IMG/VR virus record: IMGVR_UViG_2541047837_000004
Source: a virus
Lineage: Duplodnaviria > Heunggongvirae > Uroviricota > Caudoviricetes
Direction: 5' to 3' (one strand)
DNA: 19,631 nucleotides
The position numbers and the translations under genes are program-made. Shown in pieces: positions 1 to 9,110 of this stretch (the stretch's first letter is position 1; the number at the start of each line of letters is the position of its first letter). The notes beneath the pieces were generated by a model. It worked only from the letters and a program-made list of their open reading frames with translations, was not told the DNA's origin and searched no databases.

Positions 1-318
1 ATGATGCAATCTGCGGGCATTGTCGTTAATGATGTTACTGTCACCTGGCGTAACGGGCACACAGCACTGCGCGATGCATCCTTCACAGTACCAAGTGGAT
101 CTATTGCCGCTCTGGTTGGGGTAAACGGTTCCGGAAAATCGACGTTGTTTAAAGCGATTATGGGATTTGTGCGTCTGACCAGCGGAAAGATATCTGTTCT
201 GGGTATTCCCACGCGACAGGCGCTACAGAAAAACCTGGTTGCCTACGTCCCTCAGTCAGAAGAGGTTGACTGGTCATTTCCTGTACTAGTGGAAGATGTG
301 GTGATGATGGGCCGCTAG
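1..318 (+). pseudogene. sitB: Mn/Fe ABC transporter ATP-binding protein SitB-like, 5' fragment (105 codons, then TAG)
   Basis: Translation begins [28 protein letters not shown] and contains Walker [10 protein letters not shown]; it stops after MMGR, whereas ABC ATPases of this family run to about 270 aa. Identity to SitB is from memory of the family. Confidence 0.65.
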
Positions 319-692
319 TCCACCAGCGCATGTGCCACACCATACTGAAATGCGAGACTGAAAAATTGCTGCGCCCACACATCCAGTCGGCTCCCCTCCA
401 TGTCGATATTTTCTGCATATTCCCTGATTTTTTCCGGCGTTTCCTCACTCAATACTGTCGGCTCTGCAAATATGCGCCCAATATTTTGTTTGATGCTTTC
501 TTCATACACAGGAAGTAGCGTAGCCACAGACAGGCGTTTTTTATAAGCGTCTTCATCTTCATTAGGCCATTTGGGGAGATAATTTTCCCCCTGCCTGCGC
601 ATTTCAAGCGTACCGCCCATCAATGCGTCGTTAATATCCCACGCCTCCAGCATATCGTTATAGTCGAGGTTGGGTGTTGATATATCAGCCAT
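315..692 (-). pseudogene. phage head-module protein, putative portal, N-terminal fragment (125 aa)
   Basis: ATG lies 2 nt after the terminase large subunit stop, the usual portal position. The ORF ends at TAG 317-315, overlapping the sitB TAG within CTAG. Portal identity is inferred from position only. Confidence 0.3.
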
Positions 693-694
693 AA

Positions 695-1996
695 TTAAAT
701 CCGAAGTGATGTGACTCTTCCGGTCGGTTTGACAATAGGGAATTGCTTAACGATGAAATAACCTCCGGCATCATTCGGGTGATCATTGCCAGATTTTTTA
801 TCAGGCTCCCCCTTATCATCCCAGACCTGTTGCTCCAGAGATTCGGCATATACCGGACAACGCTTCACATTAACTTTATAGCGACGCTCACCATTGGCAT
901 TGCAGAACATTGCATTCATTGAGTTAACGCGATCTTTTACTGGCGGGTTCGAGCTGTTCACCACAACGTTAAAACCAGCCTGCTTAAGCTGGGCTATATC
1001 CGTCGTACTTGCGTTACTTGATTTTCTGGAATCTCCGGAAGCATCTGGATAAATATAAATCTCCCTCACTTTCCGGTAATCATTCCCGTCATACAGCCAG
1101 AAGCGTTCTTTAATGATGCGGATCATATCCGGCGTATCGTAGGCATTGATGATTTCAGTTACCGCACATGGAAGCCCCAAACGCAGCACATGGACGATCC
1201 CCGCCATCTTTCCAACGTTAAAATCCATCCCAATATAAATCGGCTCCCCTGGCTGCTCCACTTCTTCGCAATTATTCAGTTTCCGGTCAAACTGATGGTA
1301 AACAGTACCACTTGTCAGGTTAGTAAACTGTCCTCGAAGATAGGCTTTAATCAGCTCTGGAGGGTATGATTCAAGAAGCGAAGGAATGTAATCTGCTGGC
1401 AGGTTCTTTTCATTATCGAAAGTAGATGCCTGCACCAGACCATACAGTGAGGCCAGCTCTGTTTTTTCACGCACGGCTTTAACAAACTGCTCGTAGACAA
1501 ATTTGAATCCTTCCGGCGTGGTTGTAACGTCAATACCGTTGCGAAGTCCATCAATCTTATAACGCATACGCGCAATTATCTTGCGCCACGCCGTTCTGGC
1601 TTTTTCCTTCGGCAAAATGTCCAGTTCATCCACCAGCGCATTACCAATTTTGAAACCGACGATCGTTTGTGGCTTCTCCATCGATCTGCAGATAGTGGTT
1701 CCCCGATACTGGCGTCCGTAATAAAAGTGAACCTCTTTATTTCCCTCATTAATTTTTACGTTCAATCCCCAGTCAGCAGCAACTTCTTCCACTGTAGGGT
1801 AAAAAATATCGCGAATTTGGGGATACGTTGGCGCAAAATATCCCTGATTTATACCTGGATGCTCCCAAATCCCCTTGCATATGCCGCCACACCCAACCCA
1901 TGTTTTGCCCGAGCCAAAACCAGCAATATAGGCTTTAAATTTATGGGGCATTGAAAGAAATCGCGCCTGAGGCACATTAAGCGTCGGAGAGATCAT
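695..1996 (-). CDS. phage terminase large subunit (ATPase/nuclease)
   Basis: Walker A motif AGFGSGKT near the N-terminus; about 433 aa. AAGGAG Shine-Dalgarno sits 9 nt upstream of the ATG at 1996; the ORF track start at 2005 is a GTG. Overlaps the small subunit stop by 20 nt. Confidence 0.8.
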   Translation of the reverse strand: MISPTLNVPQARFLSMPHKFKAYIAGFGSGKTWVGCGGICKGIWEHPGINQGYFAPTYPQIRDIFYPTVEEVAADWGLNVKINEGNKEVHFYYGRQYRGTTICRSMEKPQTIVGFKIGNALVDELDILPKEKARTAWRKIIARMRYKIDGLRNGIDVTTTPEGFKFVYEQFVKAVREKTELASLYGLVQASTFDNEKNLPADYIPSLLESYPPELIKAYLRGQFTNLTSGTVYHQFDRKLNNCEEVEQPGEPIYIGMDFNVGKMAGIVHVLRLGLPCAVTEIINAYDTPDMIRIIKERFWLYDGNDYRKVREIYIYPDASGDSRKSSNASTTDIAQLKQAGFNVVVNSSNPPVKDRVNSMNAMFCNANGERRYKVNVKRCPVYAESLEQQVWDDKGEPDKKSGNDHPNDAGGYFIVKQFPIVKPTGRVTSLRI

Positions 1997-3071
1997 CTTC
2001 ATCACTCCTTACTCTGGCATCAACCACATTAATATTGATCGCCACAGGCTGGGGATGTTCATTATCTTCCACCGTTTCGATCTCTTTGCGCAGCTTCTGG
2101 TTTTCCATTCTGCGTCGTTCAATTTCCAGTTCCTGTAGCCGCTTATCTGCACATAAAGCCCCGCCAGCAGAAAGCAAACGCAACAATTCACGCCGGGCGG
2201 CAGCCTTATCCTCCAGCAGGATCTCAACGCCGAATTTTCCGAGTTTTGCCCCTGCATATAATTGCCGCGCATCCCCATCAAGCAGAGTGGTATCAGCCAT
2301 ATAAAGCTGTCCCGTTCCCTCACCGCAGCACTTCGGGCAGTCCGGATTGGGTATGGCGTTATCAACAAAGCCGAGGCCTCCATATTCCGGTTCGGGTTTG
2401 CCATCTCTGGAAGCCTGCGCCGCTGCCTTGTCGAATTCTGCTATATCGCGCCACTGGTAGAGATGATTCTCGCCCCAGCAATAACGGCAGTTAACACGGC
2501 GAAATTGTGCAAGCTGATTGGGGTCGGCCAGGACAATAGCCATCAACTGACTCACTAGTAAATCCAGGTCTGCGGTATAGCGTTTCTGATACTGATTGCG
2601 GAAGTAGCTGATAGCGCGAAAAACCCTGGCATTTCTAAGCATACGACTGGCGTTGCTGTTAGCTGTCGCACCTTGCCCCTCATAACCGGCTAGTCGGTAC
2701 GCCTCTGTCGGCTTTTTACCCTGAGCAACAAGCATCGCAAACTTAGCCTGCTGGTCAGAAATGCCGAATTCATCGGGACAGAACGAAAATTCCTCCGCGT
2801 CGCCCTCATTCAGGCCCGCATCGAATACTGGCTTTTTTTCCTGAGATTTTTCGTTCCGCTTTTGTGCAGTCTGCGCAGATTTTTTCTGCGCACTTTTTTG
2901 CGCAGTTTTGCACATTTCTGTCTGCGCATTTTTCGGAGTTTTTTTGATGTAACGACGGGCTGTTGCGTAATTCAGTCCCCTTGCTTCACACCATGCCACC
3001 GGAGATATACCGGAGCGGGTGTATTCAGCAATATACTCCTGCTGCAACGCCCCCCAGTCCGGTCTGCTCAT
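1977..3071 (-). CDS. phage terminase small subunit (HTH N-domain, Cys-rich zinc-ribbon-like region)
   Basis: 364 aa immediately upstream of and overlapping the large subunit gene. N-terminal HTH-like segment, central segment typical of small terminase subunits (AKFAMLVAQGKKPTEAYRLAGYEG), and CRYCWGENH...CPKCCGEG cysteine cluster. AGGA Shine-Dalgarno upstream. Confidence 0.65.
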   Translation of the reverse strand: MSRPDWGALQQEYIAEYTRSGISPVAWCEARGLNYATARRYIKKTPKNAQTEMCKTAQKSAQKKSAQTAQKRNEKSQEKKPVFDAGLNEGDAEEFSFCPDEFGISDQQAKFAMLVAQGKKPTEAYRLAGYEGQGATANSNASRMLRNARVFRAISYFRNQYQKRYTADLDLLVSQLMAIVLADPNQLAQFRRVNCRYCWGENHLYQWRDIAEFDKAAAQASRDGKPEPEYGGLGFVDNAIPNPDCPKCCGEGTGQLYMADTTLLDGDARQLYAGAKLGKFGVEILLEDKAAARRELLRLLSAGGALCADKRLQELEIERRRMENQKLRKEIETVEDNEHPQPVAININVVDARVRSDEDDLSDA

Positions 3072-3074
3072 CAG

Positions 3075-3326
3075 TTAGTCCTGATTTTTATCCACCCTGA
3101 GTAGTTCGCGCAGAGCAAAGGCATCCCCTTTTCTGGCAAGCTTAAACAATGCCGCTCGTAACTCGGCTTCACCTTTCGCTCTGCCCTTACGGATGGCCGC
3201 ATAAAAATCTGTCATTGCTTCCCGATTTTCTTTCAGTCGGTTCAGATCAACATCCAGAACGTCAGCGATTTGTTGTGCAGTCATCCGGCACGCTGCCAGA
3301 GACTCGACTTTCGAATACGGAATCAT
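3075..3326 (-). CDS. small HTH-like protein (83 aa), function unknown
   Basis: ORF with GGGGGTGA Shine-Dalgarno 6 nt upstream of ATG 3326. Stop TAA lies 3 nt before the terS ATG. HTH-like segment MTAQQIADVLDVD. Overlaps the 3' end of the upstream gene by 65 nt. Confidence 0.4.
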   Translation of the reverse strand: MIPYSKVESLAACRMTAQQIADVLDVDLNRLKENREAMTDFYAAIRKGRAKGEAELRAALFKLARKGDAFALRELLRVDKNQD

Positions 3327-4194
3327 TTGTCACCCCCATTGATATGCAGGGTGTCTTCTTCCTGTATTTTTCGTGAAGGATTTTTACTGCAGCGTTGTTC
3401 CAGGTGACCTGATGGTGAATGCGTTTATGGCTGGCACCCATCAGTGAGATTTTTACGCACGACGGCGCATACATGACGGAGTAAAAACTTTTAACGTAGG
3501 TTCCGGAATCCAGATACAGCTCGGTCATTCCGCCGCTGTTTTTCTGCGTCTGTTTCTGCCCTAACTGGACAGCACCGATCGTCATAAACAATTCACCACA
3601 GCGACCGAGATTCGTGTACGTATTCACATCCTCGTTAATGCGCCCCATGAATGAGAACGGTCGATCAACCGAACAGATAAAGCTGTTCATTGCCTTGCGT
3701 TTCACCCACGAAGCATGGCCGCCATTGTCACCAAGAAAATCCCCGCCCTGCGACATAGCGATGGAAAGAGCAGGTATTGATTCGTAGTACGCCAGCATTT
3801 CAGAAAGGATCGCATCCAGTTTCCTTATCGGAAAATAGGCCTGGTCATAGTTGCGATCCACCCGAAACTGGAACTCGTGATAATCATCATCGAGCTGAAT
3901 GAAGTATTTACACCCGACCAGTTTTGCCAGGTCGAAACAGGCATTACGGGCGTAAAAAATTGAGCGGCGGTCACAGAAATTATCGGCTTCGTCAAAACGA
4001 CTGGCGATATCGGCTTTGGAAAACACCAGCACCTGTTCACCAAATTCAGCCATGTACTGATGCCGTGTCTTATCTTCATCATCAACAACGATAAAAATTT
4101 TCCCGGTATAGCCAGCACGACGCAACGTCCGGTAAGTCAGAACTTTGTCCGGTCGCCCGTGAGTCAGAATAAAGGCGCAAAAATCATCACGCAT
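3262..4194 (-). CDS. GT-A fold (GT2-like) glycosyltransferase-like protein, soluble
   Basis: Motifs FILTHGRPD and KIFIVVDDEDKT resemble the GT2 pattern (IIPTYNR ... EIIVVDDGS), followed by a DxD-like YFIQLDDDY. No obvious transmembrane segments. AGGAGGAGG Shine-Dalgarno before ATG 4194, which overlaps the ParB-like gene stop by 8 nt. Confidence 0.5.
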   Translation of the reverse strand: MRDDFCAFILTHGRPDKVLTYRTLRRAGYTGKIFIVVDDEDKTRHQYMAEFGEQVLVFSKADIASRFDEADNFCDRRSIFYARNACFDLAKLVGCKYFIQLDDDYHEFQFRVDRNYDQAYFPIRKLDAILSEMLAYYESIPALSIAMSQGGDFLGDNGGHASWVKRKAMNSFICSVDRPFSFMGRINEDVNTYTNLGRCGELFMTIGAVQLGQKQTQKNSGGMTELYLDSGTYVKSFYSVMYAPSCVKISLMGASHKRIHHQVTWNNAAVKILHEKYRKKTPCISMGVTNDSVFESRVSGSVPDDCTTNR

Positions 4195-4978
4195 ATTCCT
4201 CCTCCTCACCACCATGCATGATCTCCACCATGCGCTGCGTCATCCGGACAAATCCATTTTCAATAGCCTGCTGATAATCAATGATCACCAGCGCCGACTC
4301 CTCGAAAAAACACTGAATTTCAGCGGGGGCGTGAGCGTAATAGTCCGCAATTCTGCTGAAATTAAACACCGTGTGACGTTCTGCCGCACACAGGAGGAAT
4401 TTCTCAATATCAGGCTCAAGGGACGCCGAACGTATCCGGCTGATCAGCTCCTGAGTTTTCGTATCGTCGTACAGTTCACTGATATCCGGTTTACCGCCCG
4501 ACGGCTCATAAACAGGCGTATCAATTTTCGTCGTATACGGCTCCTCCTCATTTCCTGTACCGGGCAAAACATCCGTCAACAGTTCATCAATTTCTGTCGG
4601 GATGAAGCCTGTCAGGGAGACATCAAAATCAGCATTGATTAGGTCCGACAGCTCCATCCGCAACAGATCTTCATCCCAGCCAGCATTCATCGGCAGGCGA
4701 TTATCTGCCAGGCGGTACGCCTTTTTCTGCTCATCCGTCAGGCCAGACAGAACAATGACCGGAACAGAATCCATTTTGAGCATTTCAGCCGCCATAACAC
4801 GACCGTGACCCGCAATAATTTCGCCCTTTTCGTCAATCAGCACCGGATTAGTCCAGCCGAATTGCTTAATACTTTCTACCAGTTGTGCCACCTGCTCAGT
4901 ACTGTGCGTCCTGGCGTTGTGCGCATACGGTGACAATTCTTGTAATGGGCGATAGACTATCTTTAATTTCTCGCTCAT
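4187..4978 (-). CDS. ParB-like nuclease domain protein
   Basis: N-terminal ParB/Srx-like motifs (YAHNARTHS, VLIDEKGEIIAGHGRVMAA, VPVIVL); acidic C-terminus; 263 aa. Confidence 0.75.
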   Translation of the reverse strand: MSEKLKIVYRPLQELSPYAHNARTHSTEQVAQLVESIKQFGWTNPVLIDEKGEIIAGHGRVMAAEMLKMDSVPVIVLSGLTDEQKKAYRLADNRLPMNAGWDEDLLRMELSDLINADFDVSLTGFIPTEIDELLTDVLPGTGNEEEPYTTKIDTPVYEPSGGKPDISELYDDTKTQELISRIRSASLEPDIEKFLLCAAERHTVFNFSRIADYYAHAPAEIQCFFEESALVIIDYQQAIENGFVRMTQRMVEIMHGGEEEEYA

Positions 4979-5115
4979 ACAGCCTTGCTTTATGAATAAA
5001 ACGCACCCCAGCAGCCAGTGCTACTGGGGACTGAGGTGTTGCTGGTAAAGTTAGGTATTGGATCAATGAGTGAGTCAACATAATATTAAACTCACAATTA
5101 TAAATCAGCCATATA

Positions 5116-6573
5116 TTAGGAGCGCCAAAAAAAACCTGAAAACAATATAATAACAGGATAAATTTCAAGGCGACCAAGAATCATAGCTATGCACATTAAA
5201 CATTTTGCAATGTCATTAAGCACTCCGAATGACGATGCAGTAGCCCCAAAACCTAATCCCATATTATTAATACATGCAGCCACTGTTGCAAATGATGTAA
5301 GAAAATCATATCCCATACCATTTAACACCAGTATAAAAAACACCGTGAAGAGAGTATAAAGAAAAAAGAAACTCCATACAGACCTCATTACACGATCTGT
5401 AACTATCTTCCCTCCTACATTTACACTCAACAACGCTCTGGGATGAGAAAGCTGATTTATCTCGTGTTTGCTTTGTTTGAAAAGTATAAGAAATCGAAGT
5501 GACTTAATTCCACCACAAGTTGAACCTATACATCCCCCAAAGAAACTTGACAACAGCAAAAACACTATCGTGTGCGTGGGCCAACTTACATAATCCTGCG
5601 TAGCTAGACCATTATCAGTGAGCATGGAGCTGGCAAGAAAAAACGAATGAATAAAACTTCCATGCAAGTCATACATACCTATATGCCAGACCTGGAAAGA
5701 GGTAACAATGATCACCCCTAAGGCTATTAACAGAAAGAAACGAAGTTCAATATCTCTGATTAAAGGTTTTATCGTTTTCCTGCTAATAACAATATACCAA
5801 AGAGTGAAGTTGAAAGCCGATAGCAGGGAAAAAGAACCAGCCACCAGCTCAACCAAATAGTTATTAAAATATCCGATACTCTCGCTATGAGTTGAGAAAC
5901 CACCAAGCGAAACTGTGGAAATCCCGTGACAAATAGCATCAAACAAAGACATTCCTGCAAGTCTATAACAGACAATACAAGCAATACCTAATAAAGAATA
6001 AGTTATCCACAGTGTCCGTGACGTATCGGCCAGGCGGGGAGTGAGTTTGTCATCCTTAAATGGCCCCGGCATTTCTGACTGATAAAGCTTTGCACCACCA
6101 ATACCCAATAATGGCAATACAGCAACCGCCAGAACAATAACTCCTAAACCACCTATAAAATTTAACTGTGACCGATAGTACAAATATGCCCGAGGTAATG
6201 AACTAACATCATCAATTACAGTTGCTCCTGTTGTTGTTATTCCAGAAACCCCTTCAAACAGAGCATCAATGAACGTTAAATTAAGTTCTGAGTCAATCCA
6301 TAAAGGGAATGCACTAATAACAGAAAACAAAATCCAAAACATTACAATTATAATAAACCCATCACGGGTACGTAATTGAATGCCAGATTTCTTAGTTGTA
6401 TACCACGCTCCGCCACCAATGCAAAAAAATATAACGAAAGTTATAAAGAAAACGAACAGGCTTTTTTCTTTATAAAACAATGCTACAACCATTGGTGGCA
6501 ACATTGAAAGACTATAGAGCCAAACCAGGAACCCACACATATGAGTAACAACTCTTACATGAGATGTATTCAT
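5116..6573 (-). CDS. trkG: Trk system potassium uptake protein TrkG
   Basis: Polytopic membrane protein of about 485 aa from MNTSHVRVV, with repeated GGxG-type selectivity-like segments. The gene is markedly AT-rich relative to its flanks. Matches recalled Rac prophage TrkG. Confidence 0.9.
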   Translation of the reverse strand: MNTSHVRVVTHMCGFLVWLYSLSMLPPMVVALFYKEKSLFVFFITFVIFFCIGGGAWYTTKKSGIQLRTRDGFIIIVMFWILFSVISAFPLWIDSELNLTFIDALFEGVSGITTTGATVIDDVSSLPRAYLYYRSQLNFIGGLGVIVLAVAVLPLLGIGGAKLYQSEMPGPFKDDKLTPRLADTSRTLWITYSLLGIACIVCYRLAGMSLFDAICHGISTVSLGGFSTHSESIGYFNNYLVELVAGSFSLLSAFNFTLWYIVISRKTIKPLIRDIELRFFLLIALGVIIVTSFQVWHIGMYDLHGSFIHSFFLASSMLTDNGLATQDYVSWPTHTIVFLLLSSFFGGCIGSTCGGIKSLRFLILFKQSKHEINQLSHPRALLSVNVGGKIVTDRVMRSVWSFFFLYTLFTVFFILVLNGMGYDFLTSFATVAACINNMGLGFGATASSFGVLNDIAKCLMCIAMILGRLEIYPVIILFSGFFWRS

Positions 6574-6710
6574 ATCTAAATATTCTTTCAATTATAACCA
6601 CCTTGCTGCAATATTATGATTATACTGTATAAAATTTAACTCCTCTTAGATCTTACTTCACTGTTCCTTATGAAACAATCATCAAAATGAATCATATTGT
6701 AGTTAAGATT

Positions 6711-8135: not shown

Positions 8136-8531
8136 CTAACCTCGCATGTCAAAGCCAGATTTCTGAAAATCTCTGTAGACTTCCGGATTGTTGAAGGCCG
8201 GAAATTTGGCTTTATGAGCTGCGGACTTTATCGCTTCGCAATAGGCTTTATCACCGTTACTGGTAGATATTTTTAACGCCGTGCCATCCTGAGAGAATTC
8301 CATATGCAACCTGCATTTTTTCCCTTTCCAGTTATGCGGCTCATCAAGTTTGGCATTAATTGCAGCTCTGATTCCCCGCGCTTGCGCCCCCCATTCATCC
8401 TGATCATCCCAGCGTCCTGAACTGCAACTACCTGTAGCAGTAGTTTTGTGGCAATCTGAAGGGTGTAAAGGTGTGCATCCCGTAACAAAACCGACCCAAA
8501 AAGTCAACATAACGATTTTCTTTAATCCCAC
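8136..8531 (-). CDS. lipoprotein with TolA domain III-like C-terminal domain
   Basis: GTG start with GAGGAG Shine-Dalgarno; signal peptide MGLKKIVMLTFWVGFVTGC with lipobox and Thr at +2. C-terminus KKCRLHMEFSQDGTALKISTSNGDKAYCEAIKSAAHKAKFPAFNNPEVYRDFQ parallels the TolA C-terminal domain as recalled. Confidence 0.65.
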   Translation of the reverse strand: MGLKKIVMLTFWVGFVTGCTPLHPSDCHKTTATGSCSSGRWDDQDEWGAQARGIRAAINAKLDEPHNWKGKKCRLHMEFSQDGTALKISTSNGDKAYCEAIKSAAHKAKFPAFNNPEVYRDFQKSGFDMRG

Positions 8532-8681: not shown

Positions 8682-9110
8682 TCAGGGTTTAAAATCCAGC
8701 ACCCCATTTTGAAATACTTTATATACTTCCGGCGAAGGGGGGGCAGGTATATCAGCATTCTTTATCGCATTCATCGCTTCACGACATAAATCGAGGTCTC
8801 CACTTTCTCTTTTAACCTCCAGTAGAAGGCCATTCGGGGCCATATGCATTCTCAGTGTACACTCTTTTCCTGAATACTTACTCGCATCCCCGAACTGTTT
8901 TTCGATGGCGCTCTTGATTTGATGGGCATACAGACGGATATCCTCACTAACATCAGAAGTACGTTCAGATGAACTCACATACTGTGTCTCTATTGCTTTA
9001 TCGGAGTAATATGATGTACGGTCATGATAATTTGTCGATACAGCATCAGTGCACCCGATAATAATCCCACTAATAATCAACGTAAGAATTGATGCGCTAC
9101 GAAAACCCAT
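8682..9110 (-). CDS. lipoprotein with TolA domain III-like C-terminal domain
   Basis: Signal peptide with lipobox IIGC and Thr at +2. C-terminal 80 aa (QIKSAIEKQFGDASKYSGKECTLRMHMAPNGLLLEVKRESGDLDLCREAMNAIKNADIPAPPSPEVYKVFQNGVLDFKP) align residue for residue with recalled E. coli TolA C-terminus (...GKTCTLRIKLAPDGMLLDIKPEGGDPALCQAA...PPSQAVYEVFKNAPLDFKP). Confidence 0.75.
   Translation of the reverse strand: MGFRSASILTLIISGIIIGCTDAVSTNYHDRTSYYSDKAIETQYVSSSERTSDVSEDIRLYAHQIKSAIEKQFGDASKYSGKECTLRMHMAPNGLLLEVKRESGDLDLCREAMNAIKNADIPAPPSPEVYKVFQNGVLDFKP

Follow-up and report, generated by a model that had tools for sequence, protein, structure and literature searches.

A TAGT-family glycosyltransferase and its ParB-like partner form a strictly paired gene module of tailed viruses that may glycosylate phage DNA

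The described systems closest to the gene pair considered here act on DNA or on protein. The pair, a ParB-like gene followed by a glycosyltransferase gene, lies in a 19,631-nucleotide stretch of DNA from a virus of the class Caudoviricetes (IMG/VR record IMGVR_UViG_2541047837_000004), the whole of which is called the window below. The T2/T6 beta-glucosyl-HMC-alpha-glucosyltransferase (HMC, hydroxymethylcytosine) is of the TAGT (TET-associated glycosyltransferase) type and acts on DNA (PMC13216743), as do phage GT-A enzymes and the trypanosome base-J glucosyltransferase (JGT), which carry an R...DDD...EDY/F motif (bioRxiv 10.1101/2023.12.21.572611). In the ParB-dependent thymine dioxygenases, represented by 5mYOX176/ParB176, a ParB protein is the required activator on double-stranded DNA (O'Toole et al., PNAS 2026; PMC13229309), and fusions of ParB to DNA methyltransferases are typically found in prophages (PMC12704722). 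The presence of ParB homologues in DNA-hypermodification clusters was pointed out by Aravind and co-workers, whom PMC8256090 cites for it, and again in PMC13229309. Solitary TAGT genes, accompanied by neither a hydroxymethylase nor another glycosyltransferase (GT), are found in 288 of 753 genomes and constitute a recognised open problem (PMC13216743), and about 65% of phage GT contigs have no base-hydroxylating neighbour (bioRxiv 10.1101/2023.12.21.572611). In the window, which is a defective Rac-type Escherichia coli prophage, a TAGT gene overlaps the end of a ParB-like gene, and the partner of the TAGT gene recurs beside it in every locus examined. We tentatively read the two products as subunits of one glycosylation module whose target may be phage DNA.

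Both genes lie on the minus strand, and the features on which the comparison first depends are these.

4978..4187, minus strand: ParB-like open reading frame (ORF), 263 aa, ynaK-type, full-length
4194..3262, minus strand: transferase ORF, 310 aa
4187..4206, minus strand: coupling junction (AGGAGGAGG, ATG, TGA), read directly from the sequence
3883..3891, minus strand: DDD (D102-D104), the DxD-type metal and nucleotide-sugar motif, invariant in two alignments

The 310-aa protein (RefSeq WP_001204028.1, labelled 'GREB1-related protein') is clearly, on both its sequence and its predicted structure, a GT-A glycosyltransferase of the TAGT family. It matches the TAGT family of Pfam (PF20691) with 122.3 bits against a cut-off of 27.5 (E 3.4e-35), residues 8-222 covering profile positions 4-205 of 205, and it matches phrog_842 at 6.3e-104, a group whose PHROG label follows the T2/T6 enzyme. 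The three segments from which an earlier note on this DNA, made from the sequence alone, had recognised a glycosyltransferase (ILTHGRPD, IFIVVDDEDKT and LDDDY) are all present in the ORF. R14 and N187-E-D189 are likewise invariant in the two homologue alignments, and together with the DDD they agree with the R...DDD...ED(Y/F) motif of the phage DNA GT-A enzymes and JGT. The AlphaFold2 (AF2) model has a predicted local distance difference test score (pLDDT) above 90 in the N-terminal half, and every top Foldseek match in the PDB is a GT-A enzyme; its structural neighbours include glycogenin, collagen galactosyltransferase and the glycocin S-glycosyltransferases SunS and ThuS, and its matches among viral structures are TAGT-domain proteins. 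The non-glycosyltransferase fold for which the earlier note had allowed was thus not what structure prediction returned. Neither protein has a membrane segment, no 19-residue Kyte-Doolittle window exceeding 1.25 in either, and both are cytoplasmic on that ground; the proposed distinction between this soluble GT-A enzyme and the membrane GtrB type therefore holds. The E. coli transferase ends in a non-conserved C-terminal tail of about 20 aa (3262-3330, minus strand), lacking in homologues of 284-295 aa, which overlaps the start of the next gene and resembles a read-through extension.

The junction between the genes is as compact as had been proposed. The stop codon TGA of the ParB-like gene (4189..4187) falls inside ATGCGTGA, the ATG of the transferase occupies 4194..4192, and the two frames overlap by 8 nt; the minus-strand junction reads GGTGAGGAGGAGGAATATGCGTGATG, also quoted as GAGGAGGAGGAATATGCGTGA. 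A Shine-Dalgarno element, AGGAGGAGG, is embedded in the ParB-like coding sequence at 4206..4198, 3 nt ahead of the ATG. An alternative in-frame ATG at 4215 would give a protein of 317 aa; the 310-aa form is the one given in RefSeq and in the phage records. Relatives of 72-80% identity have the identical ATGCGTGA junction, and ATG...TGA overlaps of 4-17 nt occur in Lactobacillus, Porphyromonas, Nocardia and haloarchaeal viruses. Since the junction recurs in such diverged relatives, the coupling is conserved and not a product of chance. Among E. coli prophage variants the transferase shows a ratio of nonsynonymous to synonymous substitution rates (dN/dS) of 0.07-0.27 and the partner one of 0.07, low values that indicate purifying selection on both genes. 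The small helix-turn-helix (HTH) gene, TerS and TerL lie on the same strand as the pair, and junction and gene order together bear out the description of a translationally coupled pair just upstream of the packaging genes.

The partner protein is composed of three parts.

4577..4978, minus strand: ParB-type nucleotide-binding domain (residues 1-95) and helix-helix region (residues 103-134)
4502..4537, minus strand: linear motif Y148-T-T-K-I-D-T-P-V-Y157-E-P in an acidic, predicted-disordered linker (pLDDT ~30)
4214..4465, minus strand: helical C-terminal domain, residues 172-255, from conservation over 161 diverse sequences

Its N-terminal part carries the ParB/Srx motifs IIAGHGR and VPVIVL that had been picked out by eye, and the domain assignment is upheld by profile and fold alike. 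Pfam ParB_N (PF02195) scores 29.3 bits against a cut-off of 26.3, phrog_620 matches at 1.3e-90, and the RefSeq name is 'ynaK: ParB/Srx family N-terminal domain-containing protein'. Box II is AGHGR, with R60 invariant in the alignment. The AF2 model reaches a pLDDT of 75-92 over the ParB domain and the helix-helix region, and the best Foldseek matches of the domain are ParB-CDP (6sdk), MxParB (7bnr, a CTPgS-bound structure), Noc (7nfu) and PadC (6ryk), followed by KorB, sulfiredoxin (Srx) and serine kinase (SerK). The further description of the protein as nuclease-like and DNA-binding is not supported: Pfam, NCBIfam and Foldseek yielded no nuclease family, motif or fold, the fold being that of the ParB nucleotide-binding switch, and the protein has no HTH or recognisable DNA-binding domain and, like the corresponding proteins of five other viruses, is strongly acidic (isoelectric point, pI, 4.5; net charge -25). 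A canonical partition ParB of a ParABS system was rejected, for there is no HTH and no parA in the window, the protein is acidic, and TIGR00180 scores 38 bits against a cut-off of 58.45 through an N-domain match only. This half is also found in ParB-DNA methyltransferase fusions: residues 3-141 match phrog_498, which comprises such fusions, at 9e-51, and PADLOC MTase_II aligns through its N-terminus with residues 10-144 (1.7e-38).

By sequence comparison, the conserved partner of TAGT is nevertheless the C-terminal ~120 residues and not the ParB domain. When the partner is split into parts, residues 141-262 always precede a transferase, even where no ParB domain is detectable. Two elements stand out in this stretch over the 161 diverse sequences. 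The linker motif has the consensus Y148-[TS]-x-K-[IV]-x-x-P-x-Y157-E-P, with Y148 kept in 159/161, T/S149 in 157/161, K151 in 143/159, P155 in 158/160, Y157 in 160/161 and P159 in 135/161; the helical domain has invariant or near-invariant R201 (161/161), H202, A211, Y214, E226, S228 and D234 (160/160). Pfam, NCBIfam and PADLOC hold no relatives of the C-terminal module, and its profile finds nothing significant among PDB sequences (best E 0.086). In a HMMER scan of 1.84 billion representatives, the module was recognised in 1187 clusters at E<=1e-3, in every case as the C-terminal part of the protein. Module proteins are either about 250-310 aa long, with an N-terminal domain of ParB type that is sometimes very divergent, or 128-200 aa long. 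Stand-alone modules of 128-153 aa occur in Vibrio phage pv27 (CDS0328, 139 aa), in the IMG/VR locus L086 (134 aa), in P0386 and in at least 12 genome loci, and the ParB domain is lacking in at least 15% of loci.

The co-occurrence of the module with TAGT is without exception. A TAGT gene adjoins the module in 28/28 phage records; it lies downstream on the same strand in 77/77 species-level GTDB loci, a count that takes in loci with sequence beyond the module stop, and in 73 of these the two genes abut or overlap; and it comes next in 5/5 further metagenomic contigs whose downstream gene has a Pfam annotation, two more metagenomic representatives having a downstream gene that is unannotated and cut by the contig end. 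The pair was thus found in every locus examined, across more than 10 phyla, and the absence from other genomes that the earlier note had named, together with a missing modification or protection phenotype, as grounds for abandoning its proposal is decisively contradicted, as is chance adjacency. The same figures bear on the view that two unrelated functions are merely juxtaposed, namely a ParB-like nuclease or partition/packaging factor and an independent transferase moron. ParB-domain-only genes do stand alone before terminases, as in Yersinia phage vB_YpM_39, and 'ParB-like nuclease' is a legacy annotation; but the module accompanies TAGT in all 28, 77 and 5 loci with overlapping stop and start codons, it exists without ParB, no examined locus with readable downstream sequence lacks TAGT, and neither a nuclease motif nor a nuclease fold was found. 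We consider independent functions very improbable.

By tblastn the pair is adjacent, in the same order and just before the terminase in several viruses, among them Rac-type E. coli phages, phages of Lactobacillus delbrueckii and L. gasseri, Nocardia phage NTR1, a Porphyromonas phage and the haloarchaeal virus HHTV-2. Its hosts include Proteobacteria, Firmicutes, Actinobacteria, Bacteroidota, Verrucomicrobiota, Patescibacteria, haloarchaea and Methanosphaera, the GTDB loci alone covering more than 10 phyla plus Methanosphaera, and the module is widespread in tailed viruses. This diversity comes from the representative-protein search and the GTDB scan, the related-locus search of viral contigs having returned mostly near-identical E. 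coli prophages. It counts against the idea of lysogenic conversion or superinfection exclusion through glycosylation of a surface polymer (O-antigen or teichoic acid) in the manner of Gtr or TarP. The transferase is indeed a prophage-encoded GT-A enzyme, and TarP was a top solved structural neighbour of the phage GT-A enzymes studied elsewhere (bioRxiv 10.1101/2023.12.21.572611); against this, the pair is carried by the strictly lytic phages c5 and pv27 and by viruses whose hosts, archaea included, have unrelated envelopes, the enzyme has no membrane segment, GtrA and GtrC are missing, the genes are not beside the integrase, a terminator divides the pair from the upstream moron, and the pair lies in the late operon. 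Surface glycosylation therefore seems scarcely credible as the function, and Gtr-type seroconversion (GtrA/B/C) in particular was rejected, there being no transmembrane segments, no gtrA or gtrC, and some 14 kb between the transferase gene, within the late operon, and the integrase.

Three loci (L130:5883-6719, L145:6344-7195 and L154:6341-7174) contain an extra gene of about 280 aa between partner and TAGT, overlapping both. The scanned set that included these loci held two extra TAGT-domain genes; should these be among the intervening genes, the loci concerned would encode tandem transferases, possibly building a disaccharide.

What, then, is glycosylated? The surroundings of the pair offer a first indication. 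In a survey of 133 downstream and 126 upstream genes (259 in all) at 80 loci, 25 families are listed, and each family outside the list has a single member. The two genes after the transferase are mostly terminase genes (about 31 TerL and 7 TerS matches among the 133), and upstream lie replication and recombination genes and some DNA methyltransferases, so that the cassette sits between replication/recombination genes and terminase; in the large phages (pv27 and L098) the pair is inside the replication module. The gene context is always one of DNA transactions, and it supports DNA as the target. A radical S-adenosylmethionine (radical-SAM) gene of about 320 aa stands immediately after TAGT, often overlapping it, in 9 of the 133 downstream positions, mostly in Clostridia prophages (L092:1262-2230, L120:7215-8174, L145:8050-9006, L163:7210-8169 and others); its products are weakly similar to twitch/SPASM proteins, MoaA, QueE, NrdG and viperin, far below family cut-offs. 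Sugar-nucleotide enzymes appear occasionally (UDP-galactopyranose mutase and a cytidylyltransferase downstream, an epimerase and a nucleotidyltransferase upstream), and a second TAGT is sometimes among the neighbours. In one locus (L094:354-9011) the cassette directly follows a B12-binding radical-SAM gene and a PAPS-reductase-like gene, with QueD (PTPS) and type IV CRISPR-like Csf genes further upstream.

Comparison with the described systems sharpens both the likeness to DNA-modifying enzymes and the difference. The T2/T6 enzyme, the founding phage member of PF20691, shares the Pfam family and the PHROG label with the present transferase, and both are soluble GT-A proteins of about 280-310 aa from tailed phages. 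The T-even enzyme, however, extends alpha-glucosyl-5-hydroxymethylcytosine (5hmC), which is made by a deoxycytidine monophosphate (dCMP) hydroxymethylase and an alpha-GT, whereas neither of these is present in the window or in the complete relatives c5 and 666R9. T-even enzymes are below the reach of tblastn at 1e-5 with the present transferase, and the search of phage records with the partner module, which covered the module only and not T-even neighbourhoods, returned no T-even record. The GT-A enzymes associated with 5mYOX or with thymidylate-synthase-like (ThyS) proteins, and JGT, have the same fold and R...DDD...ED motif, but they act on 5hmC or 5-hydroxymethyluracil (5hmU) made by a neighbouring enzyme, and no supplier of either accompanies the present cassette or is encoded elsewhere in the small complete genomes. 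On the partner's side, the 5mYOX176/ParB176 system likewise places a modifying enzyme beside a short ParB protein consisting of nucleotide-binding domain (NBD), helix-helix, disordered linker of about 50 aa and C-terminal domain (CTD), with no DNA-binding domain, and the AF2 model and alignment of the 263-aa partner give the same NBD/linker/CTD layout next to an enzyme gene; the likeness to ParB176 is one of layout. The 5mYOX/ParB loci are also often near terminase and GT genes, and MxParB, Noc and PadC are PDB neighbours common to both. The differences are that the enzyme here is a glycosyltransferase with no dioxygenase, and that its CTD can accompany the enzyme alone. The ParB-DNA methyltransferase fusions (ParB_N + N6_N4_Mtase; phrog_498, PADLOC MTase_II) are homologous over the N-terminal ~140 residues, but their effector is covalently attached, whereas here a separate, coupled glycosyltransferase goes with a dedicated C-terminal module. 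GREB1, finally, is homologous in its GT domain, the source of the RefSeq label, and differs in being a large animal protein without a ParB-like partner that is reported to modify estrogen receptor alpha (ER-alpha) with O-linked N-acetylglucosamine (O-GlcNAc).

The reading that we favour, and to which we would give slightly less than an even chance, is a late-expressed two-subunit glycosylation module in which the partner is an activator or adaptor and a sugar is placed on phage DNA after replication, around the time of packaging. The 310-aa protein would be the catalytic subunit, a metal- and nucleoside-diphosphate-sugar-dependent enzyme of the TAGT/base-J-GT/GREB1 family, and the C-terminal module of the 263-aa partner would bind, activate or complete it. 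The ParB-type N-terminal domain may be an accessory and interchangeable part that couples the enzyme to replicated phage DNA near packaging time. Translational coupling would set a fixed proportion of the subunits, made from a Q-antiterminated late transcript immediately before TerS and TerL, and the sugars would be few or confined to certain sites, not spread over the whole DNA. The usual 5-hydroxymethyl-pyrimidine is excluded as acceptor, as the cassette comes without an enzyme for making it; and since the cassette remains 40-45% identical across hosts with unrelated envelopes, the acceptor should be universal or self-supplied.

It is on this acceptor that the DNA reading is weakest, as it names no hydroxymethyl-pyrimidine source, and several observations count against it. 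The window contains neither a TET/JBP nor a thymidylate-synthase-like gene, and the same is true of the Rac-type phage 666R9 (38.7 kb) and of phage c5 (31.8 kb), whose unassigned coding sequences are all of 210 aa or less. Neither gene is among the listed families of the 259 neighbour genes; a hypermodification cluster of the TET/JBP (5mYOX)- or ThyS-linked kind was rejected on this evidence, the acceptor-making enzyme that it requires having been found in none of these places. No case is known to us in which a canonical base is glycosylated directly. With a pI of 4.25-4.7 the partner is very acidic throughout, and it has no DNA-binding domain; both AF2 models are poor over their C-terminal halves, a result of shallow alignments. 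Phage phiJL001 has a solitary T6-like transferase, not necessarily of the present subfamily, and restriction enzymes digest its DNA in the normal way (PMC4276943); GREB1, a relative within the family, is reported to glycosylate a protein (PMC7968844). The paper on Vibrio phage pv27 makes no mention of hydroxymethyl bases. A bolder form of the proposal would turn this difficulty into its content: module and TAGT might constitute a self-sufficient DNA glycosylation system that needs no prior hydroxylation and sets the sugar directly on a canonical base or a DNA end, the ParB-type domain perhaps guiding it to the DNA being packaged and the linked radical-SAM enzyme perhaps tailoring the sugar further in some lineages. 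We regard this form as distinctly unlikely.

The strongest rival is that the transferase glycosylates a protein, either the Tyr/Thr motif of its own partner, which would then be substrate or carrier, or some protein of the virion or of packaging. A self-supplied acceptor would account for the absence of a base-hydroxylating enzyme. The motif is part of an acidic segment predicted to be disordered, and the hydroxyls at positions 148, 149 and 157 are kept in nearly all of the 161 sequences. The genes of enzyme and candidate substrate always occur together, whether or not a ParB domain is present, which is how enzyme-substrate pairs are usually encoded. Among the structural neighbours of the transferase (glycogenin, collagen galactosyltransferase, SunS and ThuS), glycogenin glycosylates Tyr and SunS a peptide. 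GREB1 is reported as a protein O-GlcNAc transferase with ER-alpha as its target (PMC7968844), and the radical-SAM neighbour of 9 in 133 weakly resembles twitch/SPASM peptide maturases. Yet that resemblance is generic, extending to MoaA, QueE, NrdG and viperin at scores far below cut-offs; the helical domain is conserved beyond the needs of a mere substrate (R201 in 161/161, D234 in 160/160); the ParB module is one that DNA methyltransferases also have; the contexts are DNA-related and never capsid or tail clusters; and a glycosylated ParB-like protein has no evident biological role. On balance we think protein glycosylation unlikely, while taking it seriously.

A universal acceptor could also be a nucleotide or RNA, which opens the way to an anti-defence function exerted on a small molecule or host factor, such as RNA, NAD/ADP-ribose or an immune signal derived from nucleotides; the ParB-type domain would then bind the nucleotide. 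ParB/Srx folds bind ATP, CTP and GTP, and sulfiredoxin and serine kinase act on small molecules (PMC12704722); the T6 enzyme of the TAGT family has a sugar hydroxyl as its acceptor, and the partner is without a DNA-binding domain. Set against this are the dispensability of the ParB domain in at least 15% of loci, so that it cannot be the substrate-binding part, the lack of a PADLOC match for the transferase, the position of the pair as first in a packaging operon where such genes are usually early, and the lack of any precedent. We hold an anti-defence role of this kind to be improbable, and DNA modification, on the present analysis, is still the leading reading.

How much of this was already known? 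That the two genes are not a characterised pair, as the earlier note had it, is right in the experimental sense, as far as the literature shows, though both families already carry names in RefSeq and a ParB linkage has been noted. The TAGT and ParB families are known and named, and so is the linkage of ParB to DNA-modification genes; the TAGT family and its ParB linkage were probably described first by Iyer et al. in 2013 (NAR 41:7635). In the literature examined we found no account of the strict pairing of TAGT with a partner defined by a novel C-terminal domain, of the stand-alone form of the module, of the recurrent radical-SAM extension or of an experimental test of the pair. The analysis places a large and coherent share of the solitary-TAGT set in one defined two-gene module, whose partner domain is apparently undescribed before, as far as we can tell. 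Through Rac-type prophages, some of them inducible, the module is within reach of E. coli K-12-type genetics. Should DNA prove to be the target, the chemistry at the acceptor would be new and ParB-assisted modification would extend from dioxygenases and methyltransferases to glycosyltransferases; should it be the partner protein, the pair would add a new, packaging-linked system to viral protein glycosylation. Self-sufficient DNA glycosylation, if true, would amount to a kind of DNA modification not known before; both temperate and lytic viruses would have it, in more than 10 bacterial phyla and in archaea, as would about 1/6 to 1/3 of sequenced E. coli.

The remainder of the window places the pair within its prophage. 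Of 5426 complete E. coli genomes, 1619 have chromosomal DNA that is 99-100% identical to the 2.2 kb around the genes, and 867 of the 1619 cover at least 80% of this region. The other features are as follows.

Plus strand: intR, recT, recE and a racR-like gene
Minus strand: sieB, ydaS, a Q-like antiterminator, holin, lysozyme, Rz and trkG
Minus strand: the ParB-like gene, the transferase gene, a small TerS-like ORF, TerS, TerL and a truncated portal gene
3326..3075, minus strand: small TerS-like HTH ORF (phrog_309)
3071..1977, minus strand: TerS
2005..695, minus strand: TerL
5116-6591, minus strand: trkG, a low-GC moron between the lysis genes and the ParB-like gene
5006..5029, minus strand: intrinsic-terminator-like hairpin at the end of the trkG moron, 28 nt ahead of the ParB-like ATG

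The packaging genes TerS and TerL are covered by the Pfam set Terminase_2, Terminase_6N and Terminase_6C. The hairpin is a strong one, with a 10-bp stem including 7 GC pairs and the tail TGCGTTTTAT, and it should insulate the ParB-TAGT pair from trkG transcription in lysogens; terminator and late-operon position together argue for expression of the pair only in lytic growth. The trkG block has a GC content of 37-39% against about 49% in its flanks. Beyond TerL, the window has no head or tail genes and the prophage ends inside the portal gene, of which 125 aa are left (692..315); a SitB ABC-transporter ATPase fragment of 105 aa (1..318) adjoins it, both within positions 1-692. The element is defective because the portal is cut off and all head and tail genes are missing, and the cassette in the window is an intact relic that is not necessarily in use.

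Two smaller observations concern other genes of the element. The small HTH gene at 3075-3326 (minus strand), for which RefSeq has a shorter version of 69 aa, matches positions 145-218 of the 319 positions of a terminase-small-subunit PHROG at 8e-23 and has no match in a Pfam search; it may be a split-off DNA-binding piece of TerS. In a low-GC stretch upstream of the lysis genes, two paralogous small proteins (8136-8531 and 8682-9110, both minus strand) have lipoprotein-type signals (…VTGC and …IIGC) and a TolA C-terminal domain (Pfam, 1e-14 and 2e-23, respectively), and they may be decoys that block Tol-dependent entry of phages or colicins.

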